A DNA stretch of 64,000 bases, taken from a phage. Positions 3,371 through 60,868 of the stretch are shown one piece after another. A program made the position numbers and the translations under genes. Position 1 is the stretch's first letter, and each line of letters begins with the position of its first letter. The stretch is from sequence record PQ478073.1; one strand, written 5' to 3'. The notes below the pieces were generated by a model. The model was not told the DNA's origin and searched no databases. It saw only the letters and a program-made list of their open reading frames with translations.

Positions 3371-4060
3371 TTAAACCAATGCTGGGATGTATTGGAAAAG
3401 TTTAACACCGAAATCACCTGCTGCATCAGCAGATTGGGAACGTAGGTAAACTTCGGTAACACCATCTTTAGCAAGTAGTGGAACACCAGTTAGATCATCA
3501 ATTAGTAGACGGCCTTCTTCGGATTCAGTACTTGGTACACCTTGTGGTGATTTAAGATCTTTGTTAAAGACACCAGCACGTTCAACTAGGAAGGTAACAA
3601 CAGAAGCATCAGCAATACTAACTGAACCTGCACTCAATACACCATCAGGTGCGTTGGTGAAACCAGTAACTGGAAATACTTCAAGACCATTACCTGCGAT
3701 GTTAGAGGTAGCGATGATAACCGCACGTTGTTGAACAACATCGACAATACGTTTAACGTTAGTTTGTGCTGCATAAGATGCATTGTAATCAGCTTCTAGT
3801 GTGCCAAGAACAAATGCAGTTCCATCAATACGTTTGATACCTTTATCATTTAGATATGCTAGAATTTCTTCTGGAATATCAGTGTTTAGAAAACGTTGTA
3901 GACCAGCATAAGAAGAAACTGCACCAGTAACTAGAACGTTTACGTTTCCTAGCTTACTGATAGCAATGGATGCTAGGGCGTTAGTGCCACAAAAGTAACC
4001 TAGAATACGTTCAAAGGAATAACCATTGATACGTTCAAAAGAAGTATTAGTATATGACAT
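3371..4060 (-). CDS. putative late/virion protein, tandem paralog 1 (229 aa)
   Basis: Shares QQRAV..ATS and ER.GVFNK blocks with adjacent ORF; AGGAGGA RBS; Ala/Gly/Val/Thr-rich; higher GC than neighbours. Confidence 0.6.
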   Translation of the reverse strand: MSYTNTSFERINGYSFERILGYFCGTNALASIAISKLGNVNVLVTGAVSSYAGLQRFLNTDIPEEILAYLNDKGIKRIDGTAFVLGTLEADYNASYAAQTNVKRIVDVVQQRAVIIATSNIAGNGLEVFPVTGFTNAPDGVLSAGSVSIADASVVTFLVERAGVFNKDLKSPQGVPSTESEEGRLLIDDLTGVPLLAKDGVTEVYLRSQSADAAGDFGVKLFQYIPALV

Positions 4061-4074
4061 AATCTATCCTCCTA

Positions 4075-4674
4075 TTATAGTTGAACAGGAAGAGCAGCAC
4101 GTACTTTAATTGCTACAGCAGTAGATGCACCTGCATCACCAACACCATCAGTACCTTGACTTACGAAAGTTTTGGTACGGAAAACTTTAGCTTGAGCGAT
4201 AGACTTAGCTAGGTCAACAGTTGGATCAACTGGAGCAGGACATGCTGAACCAGGACGAACTTCTTGCTTGTTAAATACGTCTTGACGTTCACAGATGAAA
4301 GTCAATGCAACAGAATTAGCACCACCTGCTACATCAGCACCACTAGTGCCGAACGCAACTACGTTTGGATTAGCATTTTTGAAATCAGCAGGAATAACAA
4401 CTTCTGAATCAAGAGCTAGTAGAGAGGTAGTAACTAGAACTGCACGTTGTTGTAGTAGTTGGGTAACCATGAATAGGTTATATTGAGCATTACTTAGAGC
4501 AGTTTGATACGCTTCAGCTTGAACATCAGAACCGTCAGAAGTAACTTTGGTAGTACCTAGTTCAACATCAGTTGGTAGATCGATTACGATGGTAACGAAA
4601 CCGTTATTACCACCCCACCATTCGCGAGCAACGCTAGACATACCATAGTTACGGTTAAAAGAATTAAGACTCAT
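4075..4674 (-). CDS. putative late/virion protein, tandem paralog 2 (199 aa)
   Basis: Paralog of 3371-4060; AAGGAGA RBS 5 nt upstream of ATG. Confidence 0.6.
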   Translation of the reverse strand: MSLNSFNRNYGMSSVAREWWGGNNGFVTIVIDLPTDVELGTTKVTSDGSDVQAEAYQTALSNAQYNLFMVTQLLQQRAVLVTTSLLALDSEVVIPADFKNANPNVVAFGTSGADVAGGANSVALTFICERQDVFNKQEVRPGSACPAPVDPTVDLAKSIAQAKVFRTKTFVSQGTDGVGDAGASTAVAIKVRAALPVQL

Positions 4675-4835: not shown

Positions 4836-10093
<5,258 letters not shown>

Positions 10094-52386: not shown

Positions 52387-52950
52387 ATGGACGATTTAGA
52401 TTATACAGATAATGCTATTCAGCAGTTGTATGATAACAGTGGTATGTTAGATATACTTCTTGCTGTAGAGAAATATTTCGATGATAATGATTTATATGCG
52501 TATAAAGGAATTATTGAGGGTGAGTTGGTAGAGGGGCCAATTGTAAGTAAGTATTGGTGTACTGTTACATTTAAATACTATCGTGAAAATTTTCCCGATC
52601 CTACCGCATTCTCTATTTTAGAGAAACATGGAACTAAAGTATATGTTAAAGCTGATTATGAAATAACTCCTATTAAAGAACCAAATCGTCAAGCTGACAT
52701 GAAAAGTGTAGCGACACAATCTGGCTCTGTACGTATACCAAAAAATGAAAGAATCCCAGTACTATTGGTTAGAGTGCAGATTCCACGAAACTTGATTAAT
52801 CCAGAAAGTTTTGATGAATATAAACTAATGGCAGCAGAATTCAATAGTAATCCAATGAATTCTCCTGAGAATATTGAAGAACCTGTAACTGGTGATGATG
52901 TGGATTTAGATGTAGAAGTAACGGATGAGACACAAGAAGGTGGAATGTAA
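52387..52950 (+). CDS. hypothetical protein (187 aa)
   Basis: AAGGA RBS. Confidence 0.5.
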   Translation: MDDLDYTDNAIQQLYDNSGMLDILLAVEKYFDDNDLYAYKGIIEGELVEGPIVSKYWCTVTFKYYRENFPDPTAFSILEKHGTKVYVKADYEITPIKEPNRQADMKSVATQSGSVRIPKNERIPVLLVRVQIPRNLINPESFDEYKLMAAEFNSNPMNSPENIEEPVTGDDVDLDVEVTDETQEGGM

Positions 52951-53630
52951 TGAAAAAGAAATTAAATGAACAAGGCTTACGTCCGCAAGTTCTCAAAGAT
53001 TTGATTCATCCTATCATTAGTGTTGATGAATATACTCCTAAAATTGAAGATAGTAATATTGTTATTATGTTTCAGGTACTTAACAATTTTGATGCAGCAT
53101 ATGATTTATCTTCTTTTATTGAAAAATCACCTATTGATGTAGCTGATACAGAAGCAGCAGAAACACCAAATTTAGATGGTCGATATCAAGTTTATGTTGA
53201 AATGGAACGAAATGCTGAATTCCCTGAAAAACTTTTACGTTTAATTAAAACTATTGAAAATATTTGTCCAGACCCAGGTTGGAAAATACAACTATATGGT
53301 GTTAATGACCCAATCGATGTTGATTTTGAAGAAATACAGCAGAGAATTGATTTGGGTATTCCTAGTTCAATTAGTGAGTTCCTTGATTATGCTGGTGTTT
53401 CAGTAATCAAAGAAGGAAACATGTTGACATTAAAAACAGCATATGGTAAATTACATTACAGTACTGGAAGCGGTTTTGTTTCAGAAACATATGTGAAAAA
53501 GTTATTAAAGAATGATACACAATTAGACACTTCGCGTCTTAGTTCCATACTAGGGGAAAGCTATACAGTACTACGAAGTGGTGATCAATATGTAATTGGA
53601 AGAAACGGGAAATATTTGGTGTTGCGATGA
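52950..53630 (+). CDS. hypothetical protein (226 aa)
   Basis: TAATG overlap; AGGTGGA RBS. Confidence 0.5.
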   Translation: MKKKLNEQGLRPQVLKDLIHPIISVDEYTPKIEDSNIVIMFQVLNNFDAAYDLSSFIEKSPIDVADTEAAETPNLDGRYQVYVEMERNAEFPEKLLRLIKTIENICPDPGWKIQLYGVNDPIDVDFEEIQQRIDLGIPSSISEFLDYAGVSVIKEGNMLTLKTAYGKLHYSTGSGFVSETYVKKLLKNDTQLDTSRLSSILGESYTVLRSGDQYVIGRNGKYLVLR

Positions 53631-54471: not shown

Positions 54472-54500
54472 TTGACATGTGTAGTCGAAGTATGTACAAT
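54472..54500 (+). promoter_or_regulatory. sigma70 promoter TTGACA-N17-TACAAT
   Basis: Near-consensus hexamers, 40 nt upstream of ATG 54542. Confidence 0.65.
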
Positions 54501-54541: not shown

Positions 54542-55669
54542 ATGAAAGGTAAATATTTTTTCATTGAAAATGGCAAAGAAGTTGAGATTCAAGAATTTAA
54601 CTATAATTATGTACTGAACTCTTTATTGAAACAATATGACCGTTCATCAAACAAAAAATACATTTATAATGTAATTGTTCGCCGCACCTATGACTCATTG
54701 GGTAATCCGTTATTTGATGTAAAAACTCTGTCATTAGATGAAATCTATTTTGATAATAAACGTCTGAAAGTTCTTGATTTAATGAAGGATAAAATTCATT
54801 TTAGTAATATTAGAATTGATCCTAACATGCCAGTACCGCCATTAGAGCGTGAATATCGTGAATGGAAAGAAGGTCGTGCCAAACCACGTTTAGACTTGGT
54901 ACAAACATCACCAGATGTACCTGCACCTATTGTTCTTAAGAAAAAACCTATCAACCCAGACGATAGCAGAATTGATGACATTGAAAGATGGGTTGAATTC
55001 CCTAGTACTATTGAAAAGAATTCAGTAAAAGTACTAGACTGGTTTGTAAACTTACCAGTTTGTGCACAAGAAATTGGAACTAAGATTCAACAAATTTCAG
55101 AACGTCAATTGGATCTTAACTCAGCATTACAACAGCATAGTGATTATATTAGAATGCTTATGAATAACCTTACTGTTGCGTTGGAAACGTTGTTCCCATT
55201 GAAGCCGACCTTTACACAGAAATTGTTTGGTAAAACTGATATCAAAGTGCAACCATCAGATTTGCCAAAAGTGATGAAAGCACTAAATGAAGCAGTTAAG
55301 TATGACACTAATAAGTTTAGTGGTCTTAGTACGATGTTTTCAGAACTTAGAAACGAAGTTAATGAAATCAAAAATGAACTTGAATATGGTAAGTTGGGTT
55401 GTGAATACGCACTACGTTGTGTGGATGATGCGTTTGAATATGAATTAACATTAGAACGTATTATGAAAATGGGAATCACCACCTCCATGACTGAAACGAG
55501 CATTATTGCAACAAGTAAGCAATATCAAGTTGATATGAATCGTATGGTAGATATTCAAACTATTACTATTCCTTTGATTATCAATCGTTTACAATCACAG
55601 ACAGGTAAAGCTGTAGATGAGAGTACTGTAGAAATTATTCGTAATCTGGCATATGGTAACAAAGAGTAA
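54542..55669 (+). CDS. hypothetical protein (375 aa)
   Basis: GAGG RBS. Confidence 0.55.
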   Translation: MKGKYFFIENGKEVEIQEFNYNYVLNSLLKQYDRSSNKKYIYNVIVRRTYDSLGNPLFDVKTLSLDEIYFDNKRLKVLDLMKDKIHFSNIRIDPNMPVPPLEREYREWKEGRAKPRLDLVQTSPDVPAPIVLKKKPINPDDSRIDDIERWVEFPSTIEKNSVKVLDWFVNLPVCAQEIGTKIQQISERQLDLNSALQQHSDYIRMLMNNLTVALETLFPLKPTFTQKLFGKTDIKVQPSDLPKVMKALNEAVKYDTNKFSGLSTMFSELRNEVNEIKNELEYGKLGCEYALRCVDDAFEYELTLERIMKMGITTSMTETSIIATSKQYQVDMNRMVDIQTITIPLIINRLQSQTGKAVDESTVEIIRNLAYGNKE

Positions 55670-55679
55670 AAAAAAATAC

Positions 55680-55708
55680 TTGACTATCATACGTGCTGCC
55701 CGTATAAT
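55680..55708 (+). promoter_or_regulatory. sigma70 promoter TTGACT-N17-TATAAT with flanking inverted repeat GTGCTGC/GCAGCAC
   Basis: IR arms at 55693-55699 and 55723-55729 bracket the -10. Confidence 0.65.
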
Positions 55709-55756: not shown

Positions 55757-56893
55757 ATGTCCGAGAAAGAAATCAATCCTAAAAAAGCATCCACCGCAGC
55801 TAAATCAGCAAAACGTACTACTAAAACTGCGTCTAAAGGTCATACAATTGATGCAAGTGATATTTTTAACCAAACTACAAAATCACTACCAGTACTGAAA
55901 GATGTTAAGGGAAATACTATGTCTCTAACAGTTCAAAACATCAATACTGTTGGTACAACTGCTGGTGCTGCTGTTGGGCGTTTGGCTGATGAAATTATGT
56001 CTAAAGTTAATGTAACGGATGACAATACCGAGTTTGGTAAATCAATCACCACAATTCTTACGTTGACTCGTGCAGTTGATATTGACAGTCTTCAAGAAGA
56101 TAAATCAATTGTTGGACGTATTAAGAAATTCTTTGTTAATGCTCAACAGAAAGTAGGTGATCAGTACAAAAACAGTAAAGAGCAAATTGACGAAATTATG
56201 AAAACTCTTCAAACTGGTATTAATCGCCAGCACGGAGAATGTGAATGGCTTGATAAAGCATATAATGAAAACAAAGAATATTTGTTTGAATTACGTGATA
56301 CATTAGTTGGTTTAGAAGAAGTAACTAAAACACAAGATGCATTATTATTAGAAATGCAAGCAGACAAAAATGTAGACTCTTTTGCTATTCAAGAGCAAAA
56401 GATGATTTGTGAAGCACTTTCTAAACAAGAAGATAAGATTCGTCGTCTTATCATGATGTGCGAGCTAAGTGGTCCACGTTTGATGAGTATGAAAAAAGTA
56501 AACTTGAACACTGTTTCTAAGTTTGAAGATTTAAAATCTGTTGTTATTCCAGCATGGAAGTCTCAATTGGCTGAACAGTTAATTTCCGAGCGTCAACGTA
56601 AGGATAATGAACTAGGCAATCTAATTGATAATGAGACAAACCGTCTTTTGGAAACTAACTCTAAAATGGTTGCAGCAAATATGTTGGACGCAGCAAAGGC
56701 AAACAACCGTGGTATTGTGGATATTAAAACCTTGCGTAATGTACATAAAACGATGATTGACAGTATTGAAGCAGTTATTGAAGAAGAGAAAAAAGGTAAA
56801 TTGGAACGTGAACGTGCTAAACAGGAAATTGCACAACTTTCCTATGAACTGGAAGACACTCTTCGTGAAATTGCCGAAAAAGCTAACAAGTAA
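55757..56893 (+). CDS. hypothetical coiled-coil protein (378 aa)
   Basis: GAGGA RBS. Confidence 0.55.
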   Translation: MSEKEINPKKASTAAKSAKRTTKTASKGHTIDASDIFNQTTKSLPVLKDVKGNTMSLTVQNINTVGTTAGAAVGRLADEIMSKVNVTDDNTEFGKSITTILTLTRAVDIDSLQEDKSIVGRIKKFFVNAQQKVGDQYKNSKEQIDEIMKTLQTGINRQHGECEWLDKAYNENKEYLFELRDTLVGLEEVTKTQDALLLEMQADKNVDSFAIQEQKMICEALSKQEDKIRRLIMMCELSGPRLMSMKKVNLNTVSKFEDLKSVVIPAWKSQLAEQLISERQRKDNELGNLIDNETNRLLETNSKMVAANMLDAAKANNRGIVDIKTLRNVHKTMIDSIEAVIEEEKKGKLERERAKQEIAQLSYELEDTLREIAEKANK

Positions 56894-56896
56894 TAG

Positions 56897-56925
56897 TTGA
56901 CATATGAGTGCGTTTTTAATATAAT
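56897..56925 (+). promoter_or_regulatory. sigma70 consensus promoter TTGACA-N17-TATAAT embedded in terminator hairpin
   Basis: -10 lies in the loop of the 56907-56943 stem. Confidence 0.65.
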
Positions 56926-56948
56926 CTTATTGAAAACGCACTCTTTTT
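56907..56948 (+). terminator. rho-independent terminator (11-bp stem, 15-nt loop)
   Basis: GAGTGCGTTTT-loop-AAAACGCACTC then T5. Confidence 0.65.
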
Positions 56949-56972: not shown

Positions 56973-57662
56973 ATGAAACGTCGTCATATTAGTGTTGATA
57001 TTGAAGCTCTTGGAACACCTGAACTTTCCGGTTATGATATTATTATCCCAAATTACGCAGCAGTAGTAGTTCCAAGTAAACCTGAAAATGACATTCGTCA
57101 GTTCTTATATATTAAATTACCATACCAGGATCAAGTTGCAACTGGTTTAAAATCAGACGCAGGTGCAATGGATTTTTGGATGAATACATGTCAGAAAGAA
57201 TACCCTAATGCATATGCTGAAGTTGCCAGTACTATGAAACTCAAAGCACCTGAACTGTATGGACCGAATGGTCAATCACGACGTTTTTTTGCATACAGTA
57301 GTATTGTTGATTTCTGGAAAGAATTACGTTACAATGATTATGGTGAAGAAGTTCCTCATTCAGTCTGGGGCAACGGATGTAACTTCGATTGTAGTATTTT
57401 ACAAGCAAACCATTTAAAACTAATGAACGCTGGTGAGTTGTGGAAGTATGATGCACCTGAAAATGCACGCACATTGAAACGTTTATTGAATGAAGAAGCT
57501 CGTATTGAAATGGATGAAATCGTTTCGGTACAGTTGGATAAATTTATCAGATATGCAAATACGTGTGGGATTAATGGGTTGGAATTACATCACCCACTGT
57601 TTGATGCAGCACGTGAAGCAATCCAGATTTCATTCTGTCTAAACAAGCTTAAAATGGATTAA
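56973..57662 (+). CDS. dexA: exonuclease A (T4 DexA-like, DEDDh)
   Basis: ISVDIEALGT, GNGCNFDCSIL (T4 CRGMSFDFPIL), HHPLFDAAREA. Confidence 0.7.
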   Translation: MKRRHISVDIEALGTPELSGYDIIIPNYAAVVVPSKPENDIRQFLYIKLPYQDQVATGLKSDAGAMDFWMNTCQKEYPNAYAEVASTMKLKAPELYGPNGQSRRFFAYSSIVDFWKELRYNDYGEEVPHSVWGNGCNFDCSILQANHLKLMNAGELWKYDAPENARTLKRLLNEEARIEMDEIVSVQLDKFIRYANTCGINGLELHHPLFDAAREAIQISFCLNKLKMD

Positions 57663-57665
57663 TAC

Positions 57666-58760
57666 ATGAATTTCATTATTCTGTTAATACCTGCTCTTAT
57701 CGTTGTATTCGTTATGAAATACATGTACGATAAGCATATCAGTACTAAAGAACTATTGATTCATATTGGTTGTTGTCTGGTTGGTGCGGCTCTTGTTCTT
57801 GGTATTTCATACGCAATCAACTATAGCCAGCTTTATGATGTTGAGATTCTGAATGGTCAAGTAACTTCAAAATACAGCCACAAAGAATATTGCACACAAT
57901 CTAGTTCATGTAAGCACTATACATGGCATGAGAAGTGCCATACGCGATATGATAGTAAAGGTAAATCACATCGTGAGTGTGAATCATATAAGGTTTTTGA
58001 TTACTCATATGAAGTTGATTGGTATGTGAAAAGTACAGTAGGTGAGTTTGAGATTGAACGTGTGAACCGTCAAGGTACAATGACACCACCACGTTGGCAG
58101 CAAGTTATTATTGGTGACTATGCCGCAGCAGAGAGTTCATATATCAACTATCTATTTGCTGATAAGAACTCATTGTTTAGTCCTGAAGAACTACACAAAA
58201 TGTATGATGAAAAGTATCTTAGTACTATTCCAGAATACCCAAGTGTAGTTGATTATTACAAAACACATCACGTAATTAACACTACAAATTACAACGTTGA
58301 TGGTTACGATGAATACCTTCGTAATGAGCTAAAAACGATGGGTGCACGAAAGCAGGTAAACATCCAAGTACTAGTTTATGATTACAAAGATGTGGATTTT
58401 GTTGATGCTACCCTTGCATCGTGGCGTGGTGGTAAGAAGAATGATGTTATTATGTTCTTTGGTATTGACAATGATGGTAATGTTGTAAAATTTTACAGTA
58501 CATCATTTGCACAAGGAATGAAGAATGAAGAGTTACATGCAAAGATGCGTATTGATGCATTAAATGAAAAATTAACTCTTGACTTACTAGTTAAAGAAGT
58601 ACATAATATTGACAAACATTTTGAGAGACTCTCTAATAAAGAGTTTGAGTACTTGTCAGTAAAAATGGAACCTAGAAAAGATGTTCTTATCGGTGCTTCC
58701 ATTGTGTTGTTGATTCTGTCTATTTTCATTGGCCTTTATATGAGGGATAACGATTTATGA
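57666..58760 (+). CDS. membrane protein with N- and C-terminal TM helices and Cys/His-rich ectodomain
   Basis: Hydrophobic N-terminus and C-terminal ASIVLLILSIFIGLY. Confidence 0.55.
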   Translation: MNFIILLIPALIVVFVMKYMYDKHISTKELLIHIGCCLVGAALVLGISYAINYSQLYDVEILNGQVTSKYSHKEYCTQSSSCKHYTWHEKCHTRYDSKGKSHRECESYKVFDYSYEVDWYVKSTVGEFEIERVNRQGTMTPPRWQQVIIGDYAAAESSYINYLFADKNSLFSPEELHKMYDEKYLSTIPEYPSVVDYYKTHHVINTTNYNVDGYDEYLRNELKTMGARKQVNIQVLVYDYKDVDFVDATLASWRGGKKNDVIMFFGIDNDGNVVKFYSTSFAQGMKNEELHAKMRIDALNEKLTLDLLVKEVHNIDKHFERLSNKEFEYLSVKMEPRKDVLIGASIVLLILSIFIGLYMRDNDL

Positions 58761-59311
58761 ATGGTAAACTCCTTGCGTTAATTGGTATTTTGGTAGTTAT
58801 CGTACTAATGGTGTTTGGTTCTATTAGTATGTATGTTGGTGCACATGATCGTGCAGTTGAGTTTGAAGGAAACATTAAAAAGTACTATGATGCATCAGAA
58901 AGTCAACTTAGCAATTATACTCTTACTATTCAAGATAAGGTTCAAGTAGCCGATAAGTATAAAGATGCGTTGAAAGAAACGATTGAATCATACTTTAAAG
59001 GGCGTGAAGGTGTTGACCAGAAGTTTGTAATGTCACAGATTCAACAACAGGTTCCAAATCTTGATCCTAAAATTTATCAGGAATTGATGGTGACAATTGA
59101 AACAGGACGTACAAAGTTCAACAATCTTCAGAAAATGAAAATTGACCAGTGTACTGATTATGCTAAGTTCCGCAAAGGCTTCTGGAATTCCAAAATTCTT
59201 GATTCGAATACGTTTCCAAGTGAAAATATTGAACACCTTTGTACAGTAGTATCTGATACGCGTACCAAGAAAGCAATGGATACTGGTATTCAAGAATCAA
59301 TTAAACTATAA
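58757..59311 (+). CDS. LemA-like membrane protein (tentative)
   Basis: N-terminal TM then YVGAHDRAVEFE and C-terminal AKFRKGFWNS...TFPSENI resembling LemA blocks (recalled). Confidence 0.45.
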   Translation: MNGKLLALIGILVVIVLMVFGSISMYVGAHDRAVEFEGNIKKYYDASESQLSNYTLTIQDKVQVADKYKDALKETIESYFKGREGVDQKFVMSQIQQQVPNLDPKIYQELMVTIETGRTKFNNLQKMKIDQCTDYAKFRKGFWNSKILDSNTFPSENIEHLCTVVSDTRTKKAMDTGIQESIKL

Positions 59312-59320
59312 TTAAATGTT

Positions 59321-59346
59321 GGGAGTACTTTGTACTCCCCTTTTCT
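59321..59346 (+). terminator. rho-independent terminator
   Basis: GGGAGTA-ctttg-TACTCCC then CTTTTCT. Confidence 0.75.
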
Positions 59347-60514: not shown

Positions 60515-60868
60515 ATGCTAATTTATTTAAGTGTTATTGTAATTTCATTACTGGTATCATTCGCTGTTCTTAAAATTGTTGCTATTTGTAGAAGTAAGAT
60601 TGATAGTTCTGAAACTAGTTCAGTACTTGACTTGATTATGGACCATCCTAAAATCTGTGGTATTATTGTATTATTCGTTGTACTGATTAATACATATATT
60701 GTCAGGGAACATTTATATAATATGTATGATTGTAGTGTTAGATCTATATCACAAGGTGTTGAAACAGACTATAGTTGGTACTATGAGAAATGTCGATTTA
60801 AAAACCAGCATGGTATTTGGGTTGATTTTGATAAACTACGTGGAACACCTTCAGGAGAAGAAGAATAA
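60515..60868 (+). CDS. small membrane protein (117 aa)
   Basis: Two hydrophobic helices; AGGAG RBS. Confidence 0.5.
   Translation: MLIYLSVIVISLLVSFAVLKIVAICRSKIDSSETSSVLDLIMDHPKICGIIVLFVVLINTYIVREHLYNMYDCSVRSISQGVETDYSWYYEKCRFKNQHGIWVDFDKLRGTPSGEEE

Follow-up and report, generated by a model that had tools for sequence, protein, structure and literature searches.

Positions 57,666 to 59,311 of a 64,000-nucleotide stretch of phage DNA (sequence record PQ478073.1; the whole stretch is referred to below as the window) encode two adjacent membrane proteins, one of 364 residues (open reading frame 1, ORF1; 57666..58760, + strand; phrog_2087) and one of 184 residues (ORF2; 58757..59311, + strand; phrog_1383). 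We describe ORF1 as an inner-membrane protein carrying a domain of the TPM fold and ORF2 as an N-terminally anchored, LemA-like helical protein, an identity and architecture in which we have high confidence. On balance, we consider the two genes to be a self-contained two-gene module, which represents a highly diverged and rearranged phage version of the bacterial LemA-TPM pair. The coordinates, the lengths, the + strand, and the ATGA overlap are exactly as given in an earlier annotation made from the nucleotide sequence alone (hereafter the original prediction). The overlap reads ...GATTT-ATGA-ATGG, and ORF2 is, as judged from this junction, translationally coupled to ORF1. All long ORFs around the pair lie on the + strand, and Escherichia jumbo phages of the genus Asteriusvirus (such as BAU.Micro_ELP-22, phAPEC6, PBECO4, and 121Q) match this region at 98-99.7% identity. 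As ORF1 and ORF2 are conserved in 486 and 471 phage records, respectively (tblastn matches), both are real genes rather than chance ORFs.

ORF2 has one hydrophobic N-terminal segment (residues 1-31 on the Kyte-Doolittle scale), where a signal-anchor transmembrane (TM) helix is predicted at about residues 4-27 (58766..58837, + strand) with its N-terminus inside. In its AlphaFold2 (AF2) model, residues 3-62 form one continuous helix, and the helices after it are shorter. The length of 184 residues compares with about 190 for bacterial LemA, and an N-terminal TM helix is present in both. When a profile of 107 ORF2 family members was compared with the PDB sequences, the LemA structure 2ETD ranked second, at an E-value of only 0.15 and with a near end-to-end alignment. 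We retrieved 80 bacterial LemA loci with the 2ETD sequence; one LemA checked against Pfam matches PF04011 at 4.6e-62. In hhalign, the 107-member ORF2 family aligns with the 80 bacterial LemA sequences over 154 columns with a probability of 96.6% (P=5.7e-10). Because TM helices inflate such scores, the comparison was repeated without the TM helix. The probability is then 54.8% (P=1.2e-4) over 123 collinear columns, and a reversed LemA alignment, used as a control in the same setting, yields P=0.06, with 21 columns aligned. For 60 column-shuffled LemA alignments, the score is 13.4±2.4 (maximum 18.8), and the real alignment scores 33.2. Specifically, Glu37 of ORF2 aligns with the LemA Glu following the TM helix, the (E/Q)xxPxLD block of the ORF2 family aligns with LemA ENYPnLKAD, and the family pattern Y135...F/W...G-Y-P154 aligns with LemA YN...FP...GF. 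The LemA-like reading of the 184-residue protein is supported by these profile-profile comparisons, though not by a Pfam match: the window ORF2 has no LemA hit in Pfam at E<=1, and no precomputed Pfam domain is given for the ORF2 relatives listed in a large protein collection. A fold search with the ORF2 model did not retrieve 2ETD either. ORF2 is hence described as a remote LemA relative at the profile-profile level and not at the level of Pfam.

Hydrophobic segments of ORF1 cover residues 1-22, 27-54, and 336-361 (Kyte-Doolittle), and all of them are helical in an AF2 model based on an 87-sequence alignment (predicted local distance difference test score, pLDDT, 93.9; predicted template-modeling score, pTM, 0.83). 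In this model, an N-terminal TM hairpin (57669..57827, + strand; TM1, residues 2-20; TM2, residues 27-54) precedes a β-rich domain (57834..58145, + strand; residues 57-160). The TPM-fold α/β domain (58263..58664, + strand; about residues 200-333) comes next, and the protein ends with a C-terminal TM helix (TM3; 58677..58748, + strand; residues 338-361) and a short tail predicted to be cytoplasmic. The TM helices proposed for both ends of the protein are thus found, but the N-terminus has two helices instead of one, and the C-terminus has one. The β-rich domain, which matched no known fold, is predicted to be periplasmic and to adjoin the membrane. It harbors a cluster of Cys76, Cys82, Cys91, and Cys105, and the window protein also has histidines at positions 72, 84, 88, 92, and 102. 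Over 87 ORF1 relatives, Cys76 is conserved in 100%, Cys82 in 98%, Cys91 in 84%, and Cys105 in 83%, while no histidine is conserved in more than 31%; a Cys/His metal site was rejected for this reason. The original prediction had placed a Cys/His-rich domain in the middle of the protein. The residues exist, but as only the cysteines are conserved, we describe the feature as a cysteine cluster in an N-proximal β domain and not as a Cys/His site. Family members have three to seven cysteines each, at least four in 85 of 87, and all of them fall within residues 60-125; residues 126-335 are Cys-free in 86 of 87 members.

The α/β domain of the ORF1 model has the TPM fold, so that the TPM check suggested along with the original prediction comes out positive at the fold level. 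The domain holds a nearly invariant motif, W253-x-G255-G256-K257-K258-N259-D260. A full-length match to ORF1 in BFVD bears the name 'TPM domain-containing protein', and TPM_phosphatase (PF04536) is the commonest sub-threshold Pfam family among the ORF1 relatives (14 of 87, the runner-up being found in 3 of 87; best E-value 3.8e-4). At the PF04536 gathering score, the window ORF1 has no hit, and the hits of the family members are all sub-threshold. The ORF1 family profile found no match in the PDB, nor did phmmer return a useful match for either protein against the PDB sequences. As far as the model can tell, ORF1 has the TPM fold but fails membership of the TPM family by sequence. The database records examined annotate ORF1 as hypothetical, except in phage CBB, where it is a 'putative membrane protein'.

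In bacteria, LemA was said by the original prediction to pair normally with TPM-type membrane proteins, and the retrieved loci bear this out. An ORF of 230-290 residues lies directly downstream of LemA in 63 of the 80 loci, and the three such ORFs that were scanned are all Pfam TPM proteins (e-35 to e-38). On inspection of their sequences, these bacterial partners start with a signal-like hydrophobic segment and also have a TM helix and a tail rich in Gly.

The orientation of ORF1 and ORF2 in the membrane was deduced from charge bias. Averaged over the family, the C-terminal tail of ORF1 has 3.79 Lys and Arg versus 1.37 Asp and Glu, and its 3-residue N-terminus has almost no positive charge family-wide. 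The N-terminus of ORF2 averages 1.37 Lys and Arg versus 0.07 Asp and Glu. By the positive-inside rule, ORF1 would expose its β and TPM domains, and ORF2 its LemA-like domain, to the periplasm, and we infer that the soluble domains of both proteins face this compartment. The C-terminal domain of LemA is predicted to be extracytoplasmic (PMC3905215). All cysteines of ORF1 lie in the predicted periplasmic part. Of the 107 ORF2 members, 17 have both Cys132 and Cys162, 89 have neither, and 1 has a single one of the two. These patterns fit disulfide bonding in both proteins. Neither protein is predicted to be soluble, as expected of the membrane protein pair that had been proposed.

The pair is found in about 480 phage records (tblastn), and the hosts among those listed are Gram-negative. 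The carriers include Asteriusvirus, Ackermannviridae, ICP1, Aeromonas T4-likes, and Erwinia jumbo phages, as well as Acinetobacter, Sinorhizobium, Delftia, and Lak phages. In CBA120, ICP1, PX29, phiW-14, phiM7, TAC1, and RAY, the two genes are adjacent and in the same order, and the flanking genes are unrelated. We inspected 80 IMG/VR loci, one of which was untestable as it ends at the contig edge. In all 79 testable loci, from 32 lineages, ORF2 lies directly downstream of ORF1 on the same strand, and the gap between the two genes is between -7 and +50 nucleotides in 60 of them. BLAST clustering of the neighbors in the 80 loci revealed no third conserved gene. The ORF1 family itself is large. 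An exhaustive HMMER search of representatives yielded 2,163 clusters at 50% identity without extending into the TPM superfamily, and nearly all of the best 150 hits listed are full-length, at about 345-390 residues. The original prediction considered a LemA-family gene unusual in a lytic phage; this part does not hold, as large virulent myoviruses with Gram-negative hosts commonly carry the pair as an accessory module, in strict synteny. A literature search for a characterized phage LemA or TPM protein returned nothing relevant. The papers on CBA120 and RaK2 do not mention the ORF1 and ORF2 genes, and an apparent 'LemA' match in the LIMEstone literature was discarded, being only an author name, Lemattre.

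Two further observations concern the range of the family. A complete pair of the ORF1/ORF2 type (394 and 196 residues) is encoded on an 816-kb Variovorax replicon (LR594690.1; positions 6772-8591 of locus L091). It is flanked by GmrSD_N, AAA_15/21, HTH, and T5orf172 genes amid mostly unannotated genes, and may be cryptic prophage or defence-island cargo. In the Prevotella phage Lak-B8, a weak match of the ORF2 type (24% identity, E=3e-5) lies at positions 4001-4468 of locus L010; this megaphage match would extend the ORF2 family to phages of Bacteroidota.

The transcription signals around the pair point to early expression. A σ70-type promoter with a 12/12 match (TTGACA-17-TATAAT; 56897..56925, + strand) is located in the intergenic region between a TelA gene and an exonuclease gene, and is predicted to start a transcript comprising the exonuclease gene, ORF1, and ORF2. 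The exonuclease, an Rv2179c-like 3'-5' enzyme (56973..57662, + strand; Pfam PF16473, 1.5e-8; phrog_255 'exonuclease'), has its stop codon 3 nucleotides ahead of the ORF1 ATG. It is not a conserved neighbor of the pair outside Rak2-like phages, and provides a lineage-specific context. At the other end, an intrinsic-terminator-like hairpin (59321..59339, + strand) with an 8-bp GC-rich stem and a T-run, 10 nucleotides past the ORF2 stop, is the predicted end of this operon. Overlapping the promoter is a second hairpin with a T-run (56906..56943, + strand), the 16-bp stem of which has its 5' arm beginning inside the promoter spacer. Transcription coming from TelA would be expected to end at this hairpin, whereas a transcript that begins at the 56897 promoter would have only the 3' half of the stem and so would read through. 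In phage ph0011, where the region is 86% identical, the promoter is kept as a 12/12 site, the 16-bp stem and its promoter-interleaved arrangement are conserved, and the terminator keeps its stem with a changed loop. Phage CBB, whose ORF2 is 51% identical, has an 11/12 σ70 site directly upstream of ORF1 and a terminator-like hairpin after ORF2. The genes around the pair serve replication and nucleotide metabolism. The promoter, the terminator, and the types of neighboring genes together suggest that the exonuclease gene, ORF1, and ORF2 are expressed early by the host RNA polymerase. Within the 3' end of ORF1, an 11/12 σ70-like site (58609-58637) lies ~120 nucleotides ahead of the ORF2 start and could either be a chance match or serve as an internal promoter that adds to ORF2 expression.

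The features described above allow a mechanism to be sketched. Soon after infection, ORF1 and ORF2 would form a complex at the periplasmic face of the host inner membrane. By analogy with the bacterial proteins, this complex might stabilize or remodel the inner membrane, or a membrane complex within it, and would thereby keep the cell energized and intact while a large virulent phage completes its long infection cycle. Such a membrane-maintenance or remodeling role, which we put forward tentatively, derives from the roles proposed for bacterial TPM and LemA/MamQ proteins. TPM domains have been proposed to help, in the manner of chaperones, with the assembly or repair of membrane-linked complexes, the examples including photosystem II repair and the PspA-associated YdjH, and the idea that they are phosphatases is disputed (PMC11237479, PMC12419801). 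Of the LemA members, only MamQ has been linked to a cellular process; it is needed for magnetosome membrane formation (PMC4902198). LemA-like domains or bundles have been connected to membrane remodeling (bioRxiv 10.64898/2026.07.15.738315). With its restriction to large virulent phages whose hosts are Gram-negative, the pair probably meets a need at the inner membrane that is general to long infection cycles. A more specific version, to which we give a small chance, is that the pair is a membrane-remodeling or -repair machine of the LemA/MamQ class that reshapes or reinforces the host inner membrane early in infection. If so, the machine could sustain the proton-motive force during the long jumbo-phage cycle, or could blunt membrane-breaching abortive-infection effectors and premature holin triggering. 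A LemA-TPM pair would then, for the first time outside magnetosomes, have a function assigned to it, and a widespread bacterial module would become accessible to genetics.

The main functional rival is superinfection exclusion, in which an early inner-membrane complex would stop DNA entry or the cell-wall-degrading enzymes of later phages. An early σ70-type promoter, a predicted inner-membrane location with periplasmic domains, and an occurrence, among the hosts listed, only in virulent phages of diderm hosts all agree with an injection block, and so does the fact that the pair stands alone without another conserved partner, as is typical of accessory host-interaction genes. However, neither protein resembles known exclusion proteins, and their PHROG matches are families of unknown function or 'virion structural' ones. 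Moreover, exclusion genes usually turn over fast, whereas this pair is conserved with an invariant architecture from Asteriusvirus to Sinorhizobium and Prevotella phages; such wide conservation points to a housekeeping role or to a host target that is itself conserved. We therefore rate exclusion as rather unlikely, while membrane maintenance or remodeling is retained as the tentative functional proposal.

Several observations weigh against assigning the pair to the LemA-TPM system. Scans of ORF1 and ORF2 with Pfam, NCBIfam, and PADLOC gave zero above-threshold models. PF04011 appears in only 7 of the 107 ORF2 relatives, all sub-threshold with a best E-value of 0.0043, and ranks fifth among the sub-threshold families found in them. 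When ORF1 was aligned by hhalign to the LemA-linked TPM proteins, the full-length protein gave P=0.085 and the isolated domain P=0.3, with 0.17 for the reversed control, and in HMMER comparisons between the TPM region of ORF1 and these proteins, forward and reversed sequences score alike. The gene order is LemA followed by TPM in bacteria and is reversed in the phages, where the TPM-like ORF1 precedes the LemA-like ORF2. The extra β domain and the TM hairpin of ORF1 are absent from the TPM partners examined. The mechanistic step, in addition, draws on an analogy to the bacterial LemA-TPM pair. On a rival reading, ORF2 is no true LemA homolog but a generic anchored helical protein, the LemA signal reflecting shared composition and architecture and the TPM fold of ORF1 being a coincidental Rossmann-like α/β sandwich. 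The hhalign score remaining without the TM helix, set beside its reversed and shuffled controls, speaks for homology of ORF2, and we regard a chance resemblance as improbable. A diverged and rearranged LemA-TPM pair is hence kept as the favored identity.

Lysis control would cast ORF2 as an i-spanin or antiholin, with an N-in TM helix, a periplasmic helical domain, and Cys, and ORF1 as its membrane partner. The architecture of ORF2 resembles that of Rz-type i-spanins, its Cys pair co-occurs in enterobacterial, Vibrio, and Aeromonas phages, and in phiW-14 an endolysin gene begins ~2.9 kb upstream, four genes before ORF1. Across the 32 lineages, though, the neighborhood of the pair contains no recurring endolysin or holin gene, and ORF1 is a 364-residue protein with three TM helices, not the outer-membrane lipoprotein of a two-component spanin. 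The promoter signals and replication-gene neighborhoods indicate early, not late, expression, and the best remote similarity of ORF2 is to LemA. Lysis control, which had been among the candidate roles, is very unlikely.

That ORF2 is a virion structural protein, as phrog_1383, many RefSeq records (for its relatives), and the GenBank entry of phage CBB (CBB_344, its ORF2, named 'structural protein') have it, is scarcely credible: the protein is absent from both virion proteomes compared, its original GenBank names are not structural, and its N-terminal membrane anchor and early σ70 promoter do not fit. The first proteome, that of phAPEC6 (62 proteins; region 99.2% identical), lacks gp143c and gp144c, and in the second, a mass-spectrometry table of 55 proteins of phage CBB, CBB_344 is missing and the list jumps from CBB_334 to CBB_494. 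The original GenBank records call the gene 'LEMA protein' in 121Q and 'hypothetical' in RaK2, GAP32, and PBECO4. The 'virion structural protein' label thus looks like a propagated annotation error. In RefSeq, NC_025447 (121Q), NC_027364, NC_019526, NC_019401, and others carry the gene renamed 'virion structural protein' after the PHROG label. The phAPEC6 virion proteome does include gp149c and gp150c, homologs of which are encoded at about 52390-53630 of the window, a few kb upstream of the pair; virion-protein genes are accordingly interspersed with early-type genes in this region.

The surroundings of the pair were inspected for further transcription units. In the window, the coding strand has 15 σ70 sites matching at least 11/12 and the other strand has 1, versus 2.55 expected per strand from shuffles. 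Those on the coding strand start at 1208, 1275, 16377, 25290, 29103, 34343, 38519, 38715, 48304, 49607, 54472, 55680, 56897, 58609, and 62658. Their density suggests that the whole stretch is a dense array of transcription units read early by the host RNA polymerase. The TelA (toxic-anion-resistance) gene upstream of the exonuclease gene (55757..56893, + strand; Pfam PF05816, 2.2e-37) has its own 11/12 σ70 promoter at 55680-55708. The order of TelA followed by the exonuclease gene, ORF1, and ORF2 is shared with phage CBB, and TelA neighbors the pair only in Rak2-like jumbo phages. A TelA neighbor with an early promoter of its own may fit an envelope-related theme in these phages. Upstream of TelA, positions 54542-55669 encode a 375-residue protein (phrog_13312) with its own near-consensus early promoter at 54472; paralogy of this protein and TelA was considered and rejected (BLASTP, E=1.3). 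Just downstream of the pair, a 117-residue protein with two hydrophobic segments (60515-60868; phrog_8041) is encoded. Its ph0011 homolog is labeled 'WWE domain-containing protein', and the window protein itself has no Pfam WWE hit at E<=1.

LemA and TPM are widespread bacterial membrane families, and a large phage gene family is here presented as a probable diverged LemA-TPM module. ORF1 is given a structural identity for the first time, as far as its predicted fold allows, and for ORF2 a 'virion structural protein' label now widespread in RefSeq is corrected. ICP1, CBA120, and the E. coli jumbo phages provide tractable systems in which LemA-TPM membrane function could be studied.

Among known systems, the T4 superinfection-exclusion proteins Imm and Sp, to which an exclusion complex would be analogous, are small proteins of the inner membrane, made early by a large virulent phage and active on the periplasmic side of that membrane. 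The ORF1-ORF2 pair is also predicted to be early, inner-membrane, and periplasmic-facing, but it has no detected sequence or fold relationship to them, and its conservation is much wider than that of known exclusion genes. The TPM-domain proteins (PF04536), comprising AtTLP18.3, Psb32, MOLO-1, BA41/BA42, YdjH, and the LemA-linked TPM proteins, share the fold of the ORF1 model without significant sequence-profile similarity. ORF1 differs from them in having an N-terminal TM hairpin where they have a signal peptide and a ~100-residue Cys-clustered β domain inserted ahead of the TPM domain, and in lacking a Gly-rich tail; its family of clusters is separate from the TPM superfamily. ORF2 is closest to bacterial LemA (PF04011; 2ETD of Thermotoga maritima; MamQ). 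In both, one TM helix at the N-terminus leads into a helical domain of ~150 residues, the total size is about 185-195 residues, and the C-terminal domain is predicted to lie outside the cytoplasm; their profile-profile similarity is collinear with matching signature positions, and both genes are paired with a gene for a TPM-type membrane protein. Unlike bacterial LemA, ORF2 is a protein of virulent phages, and it is extended by an additional segment at the C-terminus, which in some lineages includes a Cys pair. Identity in the hhalign alignment is ~20%, and ORF2 falls below the Pfam threshold. The pair is a phage-specific, rearranged LemA-like/TPM-like module and not a categorically new kind of system.

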